Source: Oscillospiraceae bacterium
GTDB lineage: Bacteria; Bacillota; Clostridia; Oscillospirales; CAG-272
Direction: 5' to 3'
NCBI GenBank assembly: GCA_015064185.1
Contig: SVSS01000003.1
Span: forward strand, 111,791-175,790
Length of the DNA: 64,000 nt
A program made the position numbers and the translations under genes. Of this stretch, positions 1 to 5,917 are shown in pieces. Each line of letters starts with the position of its first letter. Positions within the stretch are counted from its first letter, which is position 1. The notes under the pieces were generated by a model. The model was given only the letters and a program-made list of their open reading frames with translations, was not told the origin of the DNA and did no database searches.

Positions 1-741
1 AATAAAAAAAGAGGCACGTTTGTTCCCCCAAAAAAGGGAGCGCACAAGCGCACCCTCATCGGCGGTACGTTTTGTGGGCTTTTTTTGTGTGCCGCCTCGG
101 CACTGCAGCAGCTTGGCATTGCGGGTAATACGGGCTCGCCCGGCAAGGATGCCTTTATTACCGCGCTTTATATCGTATTTGTGCCGGCGTTTGGACTTTT
201 GCTTGGCAAGCGTGCGGCGCCCCACATTTACGGATGCGTGGCGGTGGCGCTTGGCGGCTTGTGGCTGCTTTGCATGAATGGCTCCTCTCTTACCACGGGT
301 GACATTCAACTGATCCTCTGCTCGCTTTTGTTTGCTTGTCAGATGCTGCTGGTGGACCATATCGGCGATAGCGTGGATGCGGTGCGCCTGTCGGCAATGC
401 AGTTCCTGGTGGTTGGCGTGGTCTCCACCGTTTTTGCGATCGCTCTTGAGGAGCCGACGGCTGCGGGCGTGCTCACAGGCTGGTGGACGGTGCTGTATGC
501 AGGCATTTTGTCCTCTGCTGTCGCATACACGTTGCAGATCGTGGGGCAGCAGCGCACGCCTGCGGCGTTGGCAAGCCTTGTTTTAAGCCTTGAATCGGTG
601 GTTGCCGTTATCGCAAGCATGATCGCGCTTCGCCTGTATCCTACCTTAAACGAGGTGCTTGGCATGGTGCTGATCTTTGCCGCCATCATCGTGTCGCAGA
701 TTCCGTGGCGCACGTTAAAAAAGCCCAAAACGGTAGAATGA
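1..741 (+). CDS. DMT/EamA-family transporter, 5' end outside window
   Basis: Frame 1 is open from base 1. The sequence is multi-TM and hydrophobic with an EamA-like segment (GKDAFITALYIVFVP...). The listed ORF 85..741 is only the first in-window Met. Confidence 0.8.
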   Translation, partial: NKKRGTFVPPKKGAHKRTLIGGTFCGLFLCAASALQQLGIAGNTGSPGKDAFITALYIVFVPAFGLLLGKRAAPHIYGCVAVALGGLWLLCMNGSSLTTGDIQLILCSLLFACQMLLVDHIGDSVDAVRLSAMQFLVVGVVSTVFAIALEEPTAAGVLTGWWTVLYAGILSSAVAYTLQIVGQQRTPAALASLVLSLESVVAVIASMIALRLYPTLNEVLGMVLIFAAIIVSQIPWRTLKKPKTVE

Positions 742-748
742 CCGTATC

Positions 749-780
749 AAAGCCCCGCTGCAAAAGCAGCGGGGCTTTGT
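749..780 (+). terminator. Intrinsic terminator after transporter gene
   Basis: GC-rich hairpin agccccgctgc/gcagcggggct followed by a T-rich tail. Confidence 0.6.
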
Positions 781-814
781 CGAACAGTTTTTGCAAGGAA
801 TTTCAAAAGATTGC

Positions 815-843
815 TTGACAAGTGCCTTGATTTTATATATAAT
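815..843 (+). promoter_or_regulatory. Sigma-70-type promoter for tRNA-Gly
   Basis: TTGACA at 815-820, a 17-nt spacer, and TATAAT at 838-843, about 10 nt upstream of the tRNA 5' end. Confidence 0.55.
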
Positions 844-853
844 AAGATAGTCC

Positions 854-927
854 GCAGGCATAGTCTAGTGGTAAAACCCCTGCTTCCCAAGCAGGAGATG
901 CGGGTTCGATTCCCGTTGCCTGCTCCA
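854..927 (+). tRNA. tRNA-Gly (anticodon CCC), CCA encoded
   Basis: Acceptor stem gcaggca/tgcctgc, anticodon arm cctgc-ttcccaa-gcagg, T arm gcggg-ttcgatt-cccgt, terminal CCA. Length 74 nt. Confidence 0.9.
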
Positions 928-938
928 AAGCAAAAGGG

Positions 939-1455
939 GTGCCATTTGGCGCCCCTTTTGCTTTGGAGCAGCATGCGAGCCCGTTTTGCGCGCGCAAAAA
1001 GTATAAAATTTGATGATATTGCGGTACGCGCAAAAGCGGGTGCGTTGAAGCGGCTTTGCCGCTTCGTCAAATCTGTTTTGGTGGCTAGACGCCACCATTT
1101 GCTACGCAAAATCGACAGATTTGCGCATTTGCGAAGCAAATATTGCCGCCTTGTGCGGCAAATTCCCGTTGTGCCGCCGCGAAGCAAGGCAGAAAAGTGC
1201 CATTTGGCGCCCCTTTTGCTTTGGAGCAGCATGCGAGCCCGTTTTGCGCGCGTAAAAAGGTATAAAATTCGATGATATTGCGGTACGCGCAAAAGCGGGT
1301 GCGTTGAAGCGGCAAAGCCGCTTCGTCAAATCTGTTTTGGTGGCTAGACGCCACCATTTGCTACGCAAAATCGACAGATTTGCGCATTTGCGAAGCAAAT
1401 ATTGCCGCCTTGTGCGGCAAATTCCCGTTGTGCCGCAACGGAGCAAGGCGGCAGA
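939..1455. repeat. Tandem direct repeat, 2 units of about 258 bp, hairpin-dense and non-coding
   Basis: Unit 1 starts at 939 (gtgccatttggcgcccc...) and unit 2 at 1197 with the same string. The units differ at only a handful of positions, including a ttt to aaa flip of a hairpin loop (1047-1065 vs 1306-1324). Confidence 0.9.
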
Positions 1456-1608
1456 AGCGGCCGAGCCGCTTCGCCAAGGTTGCCTTGACGGCTGAACGCC
1501 GTCGCGGACCGTCAAGGACGCCGGTCCCTACGGGTGCAAATCTTACAATTCCCACCAAACGGACATAAAACGCCGTTTTGCAAAAAACGCTTGAAAGGAG
1601 AGCTGAGT

Positions 1609-2448
1609 ATGATAGAAAAGGCATATCTTGAAATCACCAATATCTGCAATCTCTCCTGTCTGTTTTGCCACAAGACGGGGCGAGAAAAGCGGCAAATGAC
1701 CGAGGCGGAGTTTGAGAGTCTTACCGACCGTCTTTCGGGCGAGGTAAAATACCTGTTTTTTCATTTGATGGGAGAGCCGCTTTTGCACCCGTTGCTGCCC
1801 CAATTTGTAAAGCGGGCAAGGGAAAAGGGCTTTTTGCCCGCCATTACGACAAACGGCACACTCCTTTCAAAAAGGGGCAAGGAGCTGGTGGATGTCGCCC
1901 CCTATAAGATCAGTATTTCTCTGCACGCGCCTGCGGCAAACGCGGCATTTTCCGATGTGGGCTACCTTTCCTCTTGTATTGATTTTGGCAAGGAGATCGC
2001 CAAACGGGGCACGATCGTTGCGTTTCGCCTTTGGAATATCGGGGGTGCGGGCGAGAGTGAGAATCAGGCGGTTCTTGCGGCACTGCATGATGCGTTCCCT
2101 GCGCAGTGGGAGGAGAAATGGAGTGGCTGGCGCCTTGCGCACAAGGTGTTTCTTGAATGGGGAGAGGAATTTGATTGGCCCGATATGAATGCTCCTGCGA
2201 TCGATGCGGATACCCCAATCTTTTGCTATGCGCTTCGCAACCAAATCGGCATTCATGCAGACGGCACGGTGGTGCCCTGCTGTCTTGATGCTGACGGCGT
2301 GCTGTCGCTTGGAAATTTACATGAGCATTCACTTTCTGAGATATTGCGTTCTCCCCGCGCCCGTGCCATATACGATGGCTTTACCGTACACCGCGCCACC
2401 GAGGAGCTTTGCCGCCGCTGCGGCTACGCGCGCAGATTTAAAGCATAA
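1609..2448 (+). CDS. Radical SAM / SPASM-domain protein
   Basis: CNLSCLFC (CxxxCxxC) near the N-terminus and a C-terminal Cys-rich SPASM/twitch-like region (PCCLDADG...CRRCGYA). RBS gaaaggag lies upstream of the ATG at 1609. The longer listed ORF from 1534 has no RBS. Confidence 0.85.
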   Translation: MIEKAYLEITNICNLSCLFCHKTGREKRQMTEAEFESLTDRLSGEVKYLFFHLMGEPLLHPLLPQFVKRAREKGFLPAITTNGTLLSKRGKELVDVAPYKISISLHAPAANAAFSDVGYLSSCIDFGKEIAKRGTIVAFRLWNIGGAGESENQAVLAALHDAFPAQWEEKWSGWRLAHKVFLEWGEEFDWPDMNAPAIDADTPIFCYALRNQIGIHADGTVVPCCLDADGVLSLGNLHEHSLSEILRSPRARAIYDGFTVHRATEELCRRCGYARRFKA

Positions 2449-2452
2449 ATAA

Positions 2453-2492
2453 AAGAGCGCTCCTCGTTTTTGAGGAACGCTCTTCATTTTTT
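2453..2492 (+). terminator. Intrinsic terminator
   Basis: Hairpin agagcgctcctc/gaggaacgctct followed by a T run. Confidence 0.6.
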
Positions 2493-2584
2493 GTGGAAAA
2501 CAGGCTCGCTTAGCGCAGTGCCGAAAGGATCGTGTCGCCGCCTATGATGCACAGTTTCGGTGTATTTACACCAGAATCAACAAT

Positions 2585-3331
2585 GTGGGCTTTTGCTCTG
2601 CCGTGCATGGATCAAGGGAGTGCCTTGCGCGTTGTGTGCAGTCTGACACTGTGGCACTGCGGCAAGTGAAAAAAACGGGAGAGCCTTATCTGCACACCTG
2701 TCCCTTTGGGCTTACCGAACTTGCTTTTCCTGTGAGGGGTGAGGGCGGCATCGTTGGGTATTTGATCGTTGGTCCCACCGTAAGTTTGTCGACCACACCA
2801 AACGACCGTGAGCTCTGTCATCTTGTTTGTCTTAAGAGCACGCATTTCAAGGAGGAGGCGCTTTTGGCTGCTGCCGGTAAGCTACCGCACTGTACCGATG
2901 CGCAGATTGAGGCGCTTGAGATGATGGCATTTGTTGTGAAGGAGCACATTGAGGGCAACCGTCTGCTGCTACCCGACCGACAGACACCCGGGCAGCTGGT
3001 GCGCACCTACGTCAAGAAGAATCTCAGTGAAAAGATAACCCTTTCAAAAATGAGCAAAAATCTGCATTGCAGTACCGTGACCCTTACTGAGGCATTTCGC
3101 CGCGAGTTTGGCGTGACGATCATGGAGTACGTTTTGGCAGAGCGCATGAAGCTGGCGCGTCGGCTGTTGCTCACGACTGCATCGATCACCGAGATCGCAT
3201 ACAGCTGCGGCTATCCCGATGTGGAATATTTCTCAAAATGCTTTAAGCGTGAAAACGGCGAGCTTTCTCCCACACAATGGCGAAAAAGGCAAGTGGTGTC
3301 ATCCGATAGCACCACAGGTGAAGTGTTGTAA
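2585..3331 (+). CDS. AraC-family transcriptional regulator with PocR-like sensory N-terminal region
   Basis: C-terminal AraC HTH (LSKMSKNLHCSTVTLTEAFRREFGVTIMEYVLAERMKLARRLL...ITEIAYSCGYPDVEYFSKCFKR). The N-terminal Cys-containing segment resembles a PocR domain. GTG start; the frame is open upstream to 2474 with no start codon. Confidence 0.75.
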   Translation: MGFCSAVHGSRECLARCVQSDTVALRQVKKTGEPYLHTCPFGLTELAFPVRGEGGIVGYLIVGPTVSLSTTPNDRELCHLVCLKSTHFKEEALLAAAGKLPHCTDAQIEALEMMAFVVKEHIEGNRLLLPDRQTPGQLVRTYVKKNLSEKITLSKMSKNLHCSTVTLTEAFRREFGVTIMEYVLAERMKLARRLLLTTASITEIAYSCGYPDVEYFSKCFKRENGELSPTQWRKRQVVSSDSTTGEVL

Positions 3332-3341
3332 TAAAAACAAT

Positions 3342-3389
3342 AAAAAAGCACGAACGGCATGCGTTTTTCATGCCGTTCGTGCTTTTTTT
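3342..3389. terminator. Bidirectional intrinsic terminator
   Basis: A 15-bp stem agcacgaacggcatg/catgccgttcgtgct flanked by an A run and a T run. It lies between convergent genes. Confidence 0.65.
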
Positions 3390-3420
3390 GGGCAATGCGC
3401 AAGCGAAAAATGCTATCGCG

Positions 3421-3585
3421 TTAGCTTTTTTCGCTATGATCCTGCTTCTTTCCCGTTGGCTCAAAGTTGCCAAGCGTGGTTTCACGTGCCTCGCGGTCAA
3501 GTGCTTGGAGCGCGAAATTGCCGAGCATTGGCGCGCTCACAGCAATATTTCTCATGACGTTTTCTTGCTTTTTACGGTCTTCCAT
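3421..3585 (-). CDS. Small hypothetical protein (54 aa), below the ORF-track cutoff
   Basis: ATG preceded by gggggtgag (RBS). Translation is MEDRKKQENVMRNIAVSAPMLGNFALQALDREARETTLGNFEPTGKKQDHSEKS. It sits 39 nt downstream of the radical SAM gene on the same strand and is followed by the terminator. Confidence 0.45.
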   Translation of the reverse strand: MEDRKKQENVMRNIAVSAPMLGNFALQALDREARETTLGNFEPTGKKQDHSEKS

Positions 3586-3624
3586 ATTCTCACCCCCGAA
3601 TTAGGATGGGCAGAGCGTAGCAAT

Positions 3625-4503
3625 TTATACATGAAAATCCGGTGTAAAGGCGGCGCTTGCGGCATCCTTGGCTTGGGTAAAGCCTGTAAAGCCGAGCCTT
3701 TCGGCTTCAAGAAGCGCTTGCTCGTATTCAAAGGTCGTAACGCGCCGCAAAAGATGCTTGGGGGCGGTTTGGGGCGCGAAATCGGGGGTATATTGGCGCA
3801 TCAGTGAGAGCAAAATATCCGATACGGGCAGTATATCTGCCAAGGCTTTCAGCACGGCGGCGGTATCCTCTCTGCAGCCCGGTAAAACAAGGTGGCGCAC
3901 CACCATGCCGCGCTGCAGCATGCCGTTGTTGTCATAGCGTACAGCGCCCACTTGACGGTACATTTCAAGGAGTGCCGCAGTGGCAACCTCTTTGTAATCC
4001 GCTGCGCCCGAGCAGGTCTTGGCAAGCGCCGCGGAAAAATACTTGAAGTCGGGCAGATAAATATCGACAAGCCCCTCTAACAGGCGCAGCGTTTCGGGGC
4101 GCTCGTATCCGCTGCTGTTCCAAACCACAGGAATTTTCAGTTGTGGCTTGATGCGTGCAAGCACACGCGCGATGCGGTCGGTATAATGCGTGCCCGTGAC
4201 AAGATTCAGGTTGTGCACACCTGTGGCGGAAAGTGAAAGGAAGAGCTCGCCAAGCTCCTCTTCGCTGACGCGCTTGCCCACAGCCTCGCGGCTGATCTCC
4301 TTGTTTTGGCAAAAGATGCAGCCAAGTGAGCAGCCTGCAAAAAACACGGTCCCCGAGCCGTTTGTGCCGCTGATGGGCGGCTCCTCAAAGTGATGGGGGG
4401 CGGCGCGCGATACAAAAATATCGGCACCTACGTGGCACATGCCGATCTCATTTTCAAGGCGCCTCGCGCCGCATTTGCGCGGGCAAAGCATACAACGGGA
4501 CAT
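3625..4503 (-). CDS. Radical SAM protein, PflX-like (pyruvate formate-lyase activase homologue family)
   Basis: N-terminal CMLCPRKC, cluster motif CSLGCIFCQN, and EEPPISG upstream of it. Confidence 0.8.
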   Translation of the reverse strand: MSRCMLCPRKCGARRLENEIGMCHVGADIFVSRAAPHHFEEPPISGTNGSGTVFFAGCSLGCIFCQNKEISREAVGKRVSEEELGELFLSLSATGVHNLNLVTGTHYTDRIARVLARIKPQLKIPVVWNSSGYERPETLRLLEGLVDIYLPDFKYFSAALAKTCSGAADYKEVATAALLEMYRQVGAVRYDNNGMLQRGMVVRHLVLPGCREDTAAVLKALADILPVSDILLSLMRQYTPDFAPQTAPKHLLRRVTTFEYEQALLEAERLGFTGFTQAKDAASAAFTPDFHV

Positions 4504-4639
4504 AGCAGTGCCCCCCTTTCACTTATTTTCCCCTTCATATTAGCACAGTACCTCAAAAAATTCAAGTTTTTTGCACGATCATGCACCAAAAGATAAAAAA
4601 TATGGTAAAATAGTAGCAGTATTTTTGGAGGTATGTCAT

Positions 4640-5917
4640 ATGAACAACAGTTGCTTTTCAAAAGCGGAGATCCTTTGCGTCGGTACCGAGCTGCTGATGG
4701 GTGATATCGTGAACACAAACGCGGCGTATATTTCTCGCCGTCTTGCCCGCCTTGGCATCGGTGTTTACCGTCAAGCGGTGGTGGGAGATAATCCCGCGCG
4801 CCTTGCCGAGGATGTGCGTGCCGCGCTTTCACGCTCCGATCTTGTCATCATGTCGGGCGGTCTTGGCCCCACCTATGACGACCTTACCAAGGAAACGGTT
4901 GCGGGGGTGTTTGGACGCAAGCTCGAGATGCACATGCCGTCCCTTGCCCGTATTGAAAATTATTTTGCTTCCACAGGACGCGTGATGACCGAGAACAATA
5001 AAAAGCAAGCCATGATGCCCGAGGGAGCGGTGGTGTTTCCAAACGATTACGGCACGGCACCTGCCTTGGCGCTTGAAAATGAGCAGGGGAAGGTCGTGGT
5101 CATGCTCCCGGGGCCTCCCCGTGAGCTTGAGCCGCTGTTTTGCGAGCAGGTAGAGCCGTATCTGAAAAAGCGTTGCGCCTCTATCATGGTCAGCCGCAAT
5201 CTGCACATCATTGGCATGGGCGAATCGGCAGTGGAAAGCGAGCTGCCGCAGGAGATCAAGGACAGCACAAATCCGACGGTCGCCCCGTACTGCGTGCCGG
5301 GCGAGGTGCGATTGCGCGTGACGGCAAGGGATAAGGATGAGAGCCACGCCATGCGTCTTTGTGATGCTATGGTAGAACGCCTTATGGCATTGCCGATCCG
5401 AAGGTTTGTATACGGAATTGACGTGCCCGATCCCGCGCACGCACTGGTTGGCGCGCTGATGGCGCGCGGCATGACGGTGGCAACGGCAGAATCCTGTACG
5501 GGTGGCCTCATTGCCAAAAAGCTGACCGACGTGGCGGGCTGCTCCACGGTAGTGGCAGGCGGTGCCGTCACCTATCAAACGCATGAAAAGGAGCAGATCC
5601 TTGGCGTTGACCCTGCACTCATTGCTACGCACACCGCGGTAAGCGAGCCGGTTGCTAAGGCAATGGCACAGGGTGCGCTTGCCCGCTTTGGGGTGGATCT
5701 TGCCATTGCCACCACGGGCTATGCAGGCCCCGGGGGAGGCACCGAAAAGGAGCCCGTTGGCACGGTATATGTGGCGGTAGCAACCAAAGATGCGGTCATC
5801 TGCCGCCGCCTTACCCTTGGCGCGCGTCGCGACCGCGCGTACGTGCGTGAGGTTGCCGCAGTACAGGCAATTTCGCAGGCAATCGGCGTGCTACAAGGAA
5901 ATTTACAAAAATCGTGA
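4640..5917 (+). CDS. cinA: CinA-family competence/damage-inducible protein (MoCF-binding plus nicotinamide-nucleotide amidase domains)
   Basis: N-terminal ILCVGTELLMGDIVNTNAAYISRRL and C-terminal TAESCTGGLIAKKLTDVAG...ATTGYAGP. RBS ggagg upstream of the ATG at 4640. Confidence 0.85.
   Translation: MNNSCFSKAEILCVGTELLMGDIVNTNAAYISRRLARLGIGVYRQAVVGDNPARLAEDVRAALSRSDLVIMSGGLGPTYDDLTKETVAGVFGRKLEMHMPSLARIENYFASTGRVMTENNKKQAMMPEGAVVFPNDYGTAPALALENEQGKVVVMLPGPPRELEPLFCEQVEPYLKKRCASIMVSRNLHIIGMGESAVESELPQEIKDSTNPTVAPYCVPGEVRLRVTARDKDESHAMRLCDAMVERLMALPIRRFVYGIDVPDPAHALVGALMARGMTVATAESCTGGLIAKKLTDVAGCSTVVAGGAVTYQTHEKEQILGVDPALIATHTAVSEPVAKAMAQGALARFGVDLAIATTGYAGPGGGTEKEPVGTVYVAVATKDAVICRRLTLGARRDRAYVREVAAVQAISQAIGVLQGNLQKS

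Follow-up and report, generated by a model that had tools for sequence, protein, structure and literature searches.

Elements known at the 3′ ends of tRNA genes

Mobile elements that target transfer RNA (tRNA) genes split the gene and restore it with a 3′ part of their own, the displaced fragment remaining as a direct repeat (PMC4383910). Attachment sites within the T-loop are documented, for instance the attB of phage Ms6 (PMC1762012). Here we describe a DNA module at the 3′ end of a tRNA gene, found in a 64,000-nucleotide (nt) stretch (the window) from an Oscillospiraceae bacterium (GenBank assembly GCA_015064185.1, contig SVSS01000003.1, positions 111,791–175,790 of the forward strand). Positions 928–1608 of the window, between a tRNA-Gly(CCC) gene and a radical SAM/SPASM gene, hold a copy-number-variable array of gene-less, palindrome-rich modules tied to the 3′ flank of the tRNA gene. 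We denote by a a copy of the 5′ half of the T-stem, by b a copy of the T-loop with the 3′ half of the T-stem, and by c the tRNA 3′ end; a′, b′ and c′ are the inverted copies. A unit then reads b–c (T-loop position 58 to CCA) or a diverged b–Z, a terminator hairpin (T), c′(b′)a′, an apex, a, the hairpins X and Y, and finally the b of the next unit, such that the copy of the host T-arm is in effect split within its loop by X and Y.

Tyrosine-integrase islands and prophages at tRNA and transfer-messenger RNA (tmRNA) genes share with the modules a site at the 3′ end, an intact tRNA and tandem repeats (PMC4383910, PMC1762012). Both also have a direct repeat running from the T-loop to CCA or beyond (in the modules, 21 nt at locus L030, 26 nt at L065 and ∼65 nt at L021). 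Unlike these islands, the modules have only 150–260 bp between repeats, carry neither integrase nor cargo, contain an inverted copy of the tRNA end and a T-arm copy split by two hairpins, and gave no viral, phage or plasmid match. Cis-mobilizable elements (CIMEs) are integrase-less derivatives at tRNA sites. Together with the tycheposon islands that bear partial tRNAs (bioRxiv 10.1101/2020.12.28.424599), CIMEs resemble the modules in being gene-poor, in having tRNA-derived attachment (att) repeats, and in lying in tandem beside the tRNA. Those elements, however, are kilobases long and recognizable as remnants of known elements, whereas the modules consist wholly of hairpins and tRNA copies, with one core recurring behind different tRNAs.

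Three further comparisons are instructive. The attP(+) of phage CTX and the attC of integrons are recombination sites made of folded single-stranded DNA. Similarly, the inverted and direct copies at L030 are predicted to form a duplex that would mimic the target, unpaired or branched at the presumed crossover, and the hairpin loops of the modules are strand-biased, although this is a resemblance only. Tandem inversion duplications have a direct–inverted–direct layout. The same layout is seen in the modules, which also share with quasipalindrome template switching (PMC8604942, PMC8794818) a TTT/AAA loop inversion and a cluster of changes that perfects a palindrome; template switching does not explain the X–Y core common to different hosts or conservation above the neutral level. 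Finally, repetitive extragenic palindromes and bacterial interspersed mosaic elements (REP/BIME) and miniature inverted-repeat transposable elements (MITEs) are likewise short, gene-less, hairpin-forming extragenic repeats. The modules differ from these in not being dispersed within the 64-kb window or, outside tRNA 3′ ends, in ∼180 kb of locus flanks, in that no short target-site duplication was noted, and in having inverted copies of the host tRNA 3′ end only.

Fragments of tRNA 3′ ends at integration sites, tandem repeats, and template switching at palindromes are thus all known already. For a 150–260-bp gene-less unit that combines a replacement 3′ end, a terminator, an inverted target copy, and a T-arm copy split by two conserved hairpins, we found no description in Rfam or in the literature searched.

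A two-unit array built in part from copies of its tRNA

The host gene, the array and its parts are as follows:

815–843, + strand: tRNA-Gly promoter (TTGACA, 17-nt spacer, TATAAT), 12/12 matches to consensus
854–927, + strand: host gene tRNA-Gly(CCC), scoring 66 bits with the tRNA model of Rfam
920–971, + strand: terminator hairpin T (GGGGTGCC / GGCGCCCC, then TTTTGCTTT), from an inverted-repeat search
939–1196, + strand: repeat unit 1, 258 bp, missing in the one-unit allele
976–1044, + strand: hairpin S1 of unit 1, from folds; unit-2 copy at 1234–1303
1047–1065, + strand: hairpin HP, GAAGCGGC-TTT-GCCGCTTC; other copies at 1306–1324 (loop AAA) and 1454–1472 (loop CGA)
1068–1123, + strand: three-way junction CAAATCTGT / ACAGATTTG, present in the minimum-free-energy fold; unit-2 copy at 1327–1382
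1127–1171, + strand: family core X-A-Y-b, which fits the family scan pattern; unit-2 copy at 1386–1430
1172–1196, + strand: segment Z, diverged counterpart of the tRNA acceptor 3′ strand and A-rich trailer; Z′ at 1431–1453
1197–1453, + strand: repeat unit 2, from Tandem Repeats Finder, pairwise alignment and repeat search
1454–1608, + strand: HP′ and tail, an older degenerate paralogue of HP-junction-X-b that may double as the radical SAM/SPASM leader

Tandem Repeats Finder delimited the array at 939–1449 (period 259, 2.0 copies, 96% matches), and pairwise alignment of the two units gave a mean identity of 96% at unit lengths of 258/259 bp. Beyond the HP loop, differences between the units include a single indel, a T/C change, and a cluster at the 3′ end (CCGCGA vs. 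CAACGG; GGCAG vs. GGCGGCAG). A preliminary description of this DNA, made from its letters alone, had reported a near-identical 2 × 258-bp tandem repeat, a first stem incorporating the tRNA 3′ end, a hairpin of the gaagcggc type occurring three times, a three-way junction, and a high density of hairpins, and each of these was recovered here. Hairpin density in segment 909–1472 lies far outside dinucleotide-preserving shuffles on either strand (z = −12.65 for + and −12.08 for −). Three copies of GAAGCGGC-NNN-GCCGCTTC, with loops TTT, AAA and CGA, start at 1047, 1306 and 1454; the shuffles predict 0.07, and three were reached in 0/100 of them. The same description had placed a perfect palindrome in each unit. 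This holds for unit 1, with the perfect 16-nt TTTTGCGCGCGCAAAA at 984–999, but not for unit 2, which has TTTTGCGCGCGTAAAA instead. It missed that part of the unit derives from the tRNA 3′ end, copied both directly and in inverted form, and that a family of such units lies behind several tRNA and tmRNA genes.

The source of these copies is the T-arm and 3′ end of tRNA-Gly (GCGGGTTCG | ATTCCCGTTGCCTGCTCCA). The arms of the first stem (920–944 and 947–971; 25 nt, 96% complementary) include the tRNA 3′ end, and c′ (TTTGGAGCAG), which repeats the tRNA 3′ end CTGCTCCAAA in inverted orientation, lengthens the stem of T to 25 bp. Versions of this terminator/c′ design tailored to the host were also found at other host tRNAs. 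The register of the repeat begins inside the T-loop of tRNA-Gly, with ATTCCCGTTG at 909, 1162 and 1421 (spacings of 253 and 259), and the last 18 nt of the tRNA plus trailer align to the junction between units with a score of 80, compared to a shuffled maximum of 24.

Within hairpin S1, the 5′ strand a′ (CGAGCCCG, 976–983) pairs with a (GCGGGTGCG, 1036–1044), the latter a copy of the 5′ half of the tRNA T-stem, and the apex is the palindrome at 984–999; orthologous S1 stems occur in L015 and L016, with covarying apices. The three-way junction encloses hairpins GGTGGC-TAGAC-GCCACC and TTTGC-TAC-GCAAA and is a lineage-specific insertion between a and X. The core consists of hairpin X (ATTTGC-GAA-GCAAAT), A, hairpin Y (TTGCCGC-CTTGT-GCGGCAA, 1143–1161) and b (ATTCCCGTTG, 1162–1171), which copies the T-loop and the 3′ half of the T-stem. 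This core is 76%–83% identical over 52–67 nt to the modules of L012, L014 and L015, and Z is kept in these three loci and in L035. The assignment of the tail is based on a direct repeat of 47 nt (74% identical) with compensatory changes, and a remnant b″ (AATTCCCACC) is found at 1547–1556. Two hairpins were noted in the tail at 1473–1608, GACGGC-TGAAC-GCCGTC and GGACCG...CGGTCC, the second of which is kept in L013; this segment may belong to the radical SAM/SPASM gene as a conserved leader or promoter element and be distinct from the repeat.

A feature of the hairpins themselves is that many in the family have A-T closing pairs and G-N-A loops on the tRNA-sense strand. The heptamer GCGAAGC, which folds into a DNA mini-hairpin of unusual stability (loop GAA), recurs in hairpins of the window (1131–1137 and 1179–1185) and of L065 (∼3843–3853).

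The array is polymorphic among metagenome contigs

The radical SAM/SPASM protein (1609–2448) has the same sequence on the 23 public contigs read. Three lengths were observed for the spacer between the EamA gene and the radical SAM gene:

867 bp, identical to the window: L003, L004, L007, L009
609 bp: L002, L006
460 bp: L001, L005, L008

The two-unit spacer of the window was thus recovered without a single difference on four independent metagenome contigs. L002 equals the window exactly minus 939–1196, and its flanking genes match those of L003 at 100% identity. L006 and L002 are in turn identical over 609 bp except for the HP loop (AAA → TTT, three bases). As these contigs differ only in the loop, the loop inversion is a single mutational event, which bears out the preliminary reading of the TTT-to-AAA change between units as an exact inversion. 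Inversion of a spacer by template switching between the arms of an inverted repeat is a known signature (PMC8604942).

The 460-bp allele lacks a further 148 bp, between two copies of the 19-nt HP hairpin, and its loop, AGA, looks like a hybrid of AAA and CGA. It comes from a more distant lineage, whose EamA gene has 93% nucleotide identity. Because unit 1 has two variants in common with this distant allele, two units probably came before one; the one-unit allele can be explained at least as well by recent deletion of a unit from an older pair as by a recent duplication. The preliminary description had suggested a structured element duplicated very recently. The element is structured, duplicated and linked to the tRNA, but the 4% divergence between units and the variants that unit 1 shares with the distant allele argue against "very recently."

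The locus is a variable-number tandem repeat, with head-to-tail units that differ in number between strains. Alleles with zero, one and two units exist, their breakpoints fit recombination between repeats, and the array is a population polymorphism and not an assembly artefact. The recent changes in the species of the window are deletions or duplications between repeats plus the loop inversion. We suppose that two units became one through unequal recombination or slippage, and that the 148-bp change between the two HP hairpins came about through ordinary repeat dynamics. The loop flip, as well as the clustered change that perfects palindrome CCGTTG-TGCCG-CAACGG, would be template-switch mutations.

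A metagenome gene caller annotated an open reading frame (ORF) of 90 amino acids across the unit junction (window 1085–1357, − strand; L003 3477–3749), for which no Pfam hit is on record. Since it spans the junction it should be missing from the shorter alleles, and it is almost certainly spurious. Mechanical ORFs thus do occur in the region, which had been described as having no credible ORF. More generally, arrays of this kind break short-read assemblies, draw spurious ORF calls and could be taken for noncoding RNA (ncRNA) genes, and their copy number is a strain marker. A case in point may be L035 and L054, two contigs of one metagenome that overlap in the repeated unit and appear to be one tRNA-Gly locus split by the assembler; together they form an apparent two-unit array whose units differ in the apex of hairpin S1.

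Related modules behind other tRNA and tmRNA genes

Relatives of the radical SAM gene were found in 18 species-level genomes, all of them metagenome-assembled genomes of rumen or gut Clostridia. tRNA-Gly(CCC) lies upstream in nine, and the spacers behind it have recognizable modules in common. Duplications arose independently in L012 (two units of ∼250 bp) and L015 (two of 66 bp). In three related species (L019–L021), the orientation of the tRNA gene with respect to the radical SAM gene is reversed. The module remains behind the inverted tRNA in L020 and L021, which links it to the tRNA and not to the radical SAM gene; L019, a distant species, has a bare tRNA and terminator without module. In L021, this tRNA is also the site of an insertion or duplication of another kind. 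Within 1–261 nt past its tRNA-Gly (− strand), a segment of ∼65 nt (the last 24 nt of the tRNA plus the terminator) is duplicated near-perfectly (score 125), the copies flanking a hairpin-rich insert of ∼155 nt unrelated to the X–Y core.

A pattern scan of metagenomes for hairpin Y followed by AAATTCCCGT returned 32 loci, about half of them chance matches. A host RNA gene was identifiable in eight (seven called by ARAGORN, L041 by eye), and in 8/8 the motif lies 135–230 nt downstream on the same strand. The hosts were tRNA-Gly(CCC), tRNA-Glu(TTC), tRNA-Glu(CTC), tmRNA, and one unrecognized RNA gene with a tRNA-like 3′ end; L060 has three copies of the module. At L041 (∼860–960) the module stands behind a tRNA-like T-arm ending ...CTCTGCGCCA, missed both by ARAGORN and by the Rfam tRNA model; this host could be some other stable RNA, or else a tRNA that has diverged or decayed.

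These loci share one architecture: the tRNA (a, b, c); T; c′(b′)a′; the apex; a followed by TTCG/TTCA; C; X, closed by AT...AT; A; Y; b, which is ATT plus the 3′ half of the T-stem; and then part or all of the acceptor 3′ strand. Copy a matches the host T-stem in every class (GCGGG, CATGGG, CGGGTTCA, GAGGG), the inverted copy c′ is host-specific in every class and matches the 3′ end of each host, and copy b–c agrees with the host over 8–21 nt. The 21-nt repeat ATTCCCGTCGGCTCCACCAAA of the tmRNA locus L030 is perfect. Folded with DNA parameters, L030 is predicted to form a four-way junction. In it, the inverted and direct copies would pair as a closing stem of ∼25 bp, and X and Y would branch off where the T-loop lies. 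The tmRNA-adjacent terminator of L030 is not present after the distal repeat and hence arrived with the insert.

Both units of the window have the traits that define the family, namely Y followed by AAATTCCCGT, X closed by AT...AT, and an upstream copy of the 5′ half of the T-stem. Their copy a (GCGGGTGCG) lies ∼90 nt upstream of X, with HP and the three-way junction intervening. A covariance model search of ∼285 kb recovered the family and no copies off tRNA flanks. A search of the 64-kb window by BLAST with the unit, insert, head and tail gave no other copy, and dispersed copies of the REP or MITE kind were found neither elsewhere in those 64 kb nor in ∼180 kb of locus flanks outside tRNA 3′ ends.

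Following the tmRNA locus through its neighboring 2-dehydro-3-deoxygalactonokinase gene, we saw that the tmRNA is not syntenic in relatives and by chance met L065, a locus reached via the neighboring protein and not by use of the motif. There, two direct repeats of 87 nt, 87% identical and 163 nt apart, stand behind a tRNA-Leu(CAG). Each comprises tRNA 3′ end, terminator and inverted copy, forming a palindrome with arms of 37 or 40 nt centered on the terminator loop. By reading of the sequences, the first 26 nt, derived from tRNA and trailer, are identical, and the other 61 nt hold the ∼11 differences (∼82%).

Conservation, covariation and strand symmetry

Pairing in X and Y is maintained by compensatory change. 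In an alignment of 16 sequences, 92% of cells were paired, compared to 84% in shuffles and 24%–53% in slid controls, and 35 double-sided changes were counted vs. 14 expected; 0/500 shuffles reached either value. The spacers are also similar over long blocks: the tail of the window is 95% identical to that of L012 over 130 nt, and blocks are shared between L012 and L014 (81% over 212 nt), L015 and L016 (∼90% over 108 nt), and L013 and L015 (96% over 55 nt). Identity at fourfold sites of the radical SAM gene is 0.66 between the window and L012 and 0.33–0.58 for other pairs. The likeness of blocks is mosaic and at odds with the gene tree, and variants of hairpin X are common to modules behind different host genes. 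As judged from these alignments, the modules appear to be constrained or exchanged, being much better conserved than synonymous sites.

The strands are nearly equivalent. A structured RNA is expected to tolerate G.U pairs on one strand and to fold better on it; hand-summed over 25 family modules, G.U pairs number ∼50 in sense and ∼55 in antisense, and the stems are almost all perfect Watson–Crick pairs. The sense fold is more stable in 18/25 modules, by a mean of 1.3 kcal/mol. Folding is therefore symmetric, and only the loops are strand-biased: in 10/26 copies the sense-strand Y loop is GNA, and in none is it the complement, a hint only, as the copies are not independent.

Possible origins of the module

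Tentatively, and with somewhat less than even confidence, we read the module as a miniature nonautonomous integrative module, or the relic of an att site, that multiplies at the tRNA 3′ end. It would act as DNA and not as an RNA gene; the repeat of the window is probably not an RNA gene. Served by a recombinase in trans, it would multiply head to tail by recombination at the repeat that runs from T-loop to CCA, in the mode of integrative elements, each event regenerating the tRNA and displacing the old 3′ fragment. The site is 3′ of an intact tRNA or tmRNA gene, on the same strand, in all members with an identifiable host, and in the window, L030, L021 and L065 the tRNA 3′ fragment recurs as a direct repeat on either side of the insert. 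The fixed boundary in the T-loop, perfect repeats of 21–26 nt beside diverged flanks, the terminator of L030, and the mosaic conservation all fit this reading.

A number of observations weigh against an integrative origin, or against how far the family extends. Distant-mode BLAST of phage and plasmid collections returned nothing relevant, and scans of viral contigs gave one apparent chance match for the Y–b motif and zero for the tRNA 3′ end. No recombinase-like ORF was seen beside eight family loci (ORF starts inspected), no tyrosine-recombinase motif in the 64-kb window, and no integrase, transposase or other gene in or next to the modules inspected, whose units are without conserved ORF. 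Among the loci examined there was neither a full-length element nor an empty-vs.-filled pair for the first insertion. The registers of tandem duplication vary (258 and 148 bp at this locus, 66 bp in L015, 163 bp in L065), which fits generic slippage better than one site-specific event. Z is conserved yet diverged, as is not predicted by a simple model of a decaying displaced fragment, and the inverted copy and the split T-arm have no role in the standard model of a double-stranded integrase. Since the scan pattern required b = ATTCCCGT, ascertainment accounts for part of the agreement between b and its hosts, and in L041 b differs from the host. Finally, a covariance model built from members with a long X scores the units of the window weakly, at 11–13 bits, because HP and the three-way junction separate a from X-Y-b; their family membership is supported by orthology with the tRNA-Gly modules of L012 and L035.

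We regard it as possible, though on the unlikely side, that the module is instead a mutational by-product without enzyme or function. Terminator hairpins near heavily transcribed stable-RNA genes would provoke template switching during replication and slippage would resize the array, with a palindrome that extends into the tRNA 3′ end and direct–inverted–direct copies as in tandem inversion duplications. Template switching homogenizes arms, inverts spacers, and creates or maintains hairpins (PMC8604942, PMC8794818). Much of what we observed has this appearance: host sequence is laid out as direct copy, terminator, inverted copy and direct copy, the palindromic stems are perfect on both strands, one loop was inverted in a single event, a clustered change perfected a palindrome, duplications took several registers, and the ORFs adjacent to modules at eight loci and the motif scan of the window yielded no recombinase. 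Local copying cannot, however, create an X–Y core with conserved loops and internal loops common to different tRNA and tmRNA hosts. It is also at odds with spacer blocks 80%–96% identical over 50–212 nt next to 42%–66% identity at fourfold sites, with the terminator of L030, which is missing after the distal repeat and so came with the insert, with L065, where the 26 tRNA-derived nt are identical and all ∼11 differences fall in the other 61 nt, and with Y loops that are GNA in sense in 10/26 and never the complement.

That the module is a structured ncRNA, made as a tRNA 3′ trailer or from a promoter of its own and folding into a three-way junction closed by a T-stem-like helix, we find improbable. 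Such an RNA would account for modules that are always downstream from the tRNA and on its strand, for hairpins maintained by compensatory changes, for the C-U-Y-G tetraloops conserved in hairpin X, for conservation above neutral sites, and for the slightly better sense fold of 18/25 modules. The preliminary description had likened the region to large tRNA-linked ncRNAs and proposed a covariance check for ROOL, GOLLD and raiA. The check was run and matched no such family: tRNA alone was matched in window 1–5000 at E ≤ 10, and Rfam 15 on 20 family loci gave only tRNA and tmRNA at the modules, the weak AaHKsRNA22 match over the modules of L036 (31.7 bits) lying under its threshold of 39.8. Moreover, an intrinsic terminator-type hairpin with a T-run precedes each module that was closely examined (window, L030, L057, L065), no promoter-like site was found within 928–1608, the sense strand has no excess of G.U pairs, and the fold z-scores are equal. 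Pairing of the inverted copy extends over the discriminator base and CCA, and the copies follow the acceptor of the host; copying of DNA predicts both, and an RNA fold needs neither.

It is about as doubtful that the modules form a new class of gene-less mobile DNA aimed at the T-loop of tRNA and tmRNA genes, with a folded single strand mimicking the target. Such a module would carry a replacement tRNA 3′ end and its own terminator; its inverted and direct target copies would fold, as single-stranded DNA, into a mimic of the double-stranded attachment site with X and Y at the crossover point, and a trans-acting recombinase would integrate it.

We give very little credence to a cis-regulatory leader of the radical SAM/SPASM gene, duplicated in the manner of a tandem riboswitch. 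The tail at 1473–1608 does abut the ribosome-binding site from upstream, with the high identity to L012 given above and a part kept in L013, and a leader function is plausible for it. For the repeated units this function is excluded: they go with the tRNA when tRNA and radical SAM gene are uncoupled, family members adjoin unrelated or convergent genes, and the same tail occurs in alleles of zero, one and two units. Lastly, short-read assemblies can mis-handle repeats, as at L035/L054, apparently broken at one, but an assembly artefact or chance cluster of palindromes can be dismissed in view of the identical two-unit spacer in the window and four independent metagenome contigs, the fixed positions at which the units differ, and a fold z-score of about −12.

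Several further systems were considered and rejected: an IS110-type bridge RNA (the guide-like copies are both of the same sense, and there is no recombinase); a group II intron, retron or T-box (defining parts not present); an IS200/IS605-type mini-element inserted at TTCG (no copies outside T-arm copies); and a tRNA-mimic RNA (with CCA paired to the inverted copy, no acceptor end is left free).

If the family reading is true, stable-RNA genes of uncultured gut Clostridia are trailed by a recurrent, conserved structure made from their own 3′ ends and a shared hairpin core. This could be a very small integrase-less relative of tRNA-targeting elements, with a bearing on the evolution of att sites and the persistence of satellites, or else a clear example from nature of how template switching driven by palindromes shapes conserved noncoding DNA.

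Other structures near the modules

Some contigs have further structured sequence past the modules. At L060 (3837–3912, − strand), a near-threshold match to the Rfam family Gut-1 (48.9 bits vs. a gathering threshold of 50; E = 2 × 10^−7) covers three hairpins, each after UGAUAU, ∼420 nt past tRNA-Glu and directly after two modules. Arrays of a constant spacer plus hairpin also follow the modules of L050 (CTTCATTA, five times) and of L039 and L041 (ATGTAATC), and Gut-1 may be part of the same landscape of tRNA flanks. Unrelated to these findings, the module-bearing contig L052 carries tandem SAM riboswitch aptamers at 212–299 and 403–489 (42.7 and 49.6 bits).

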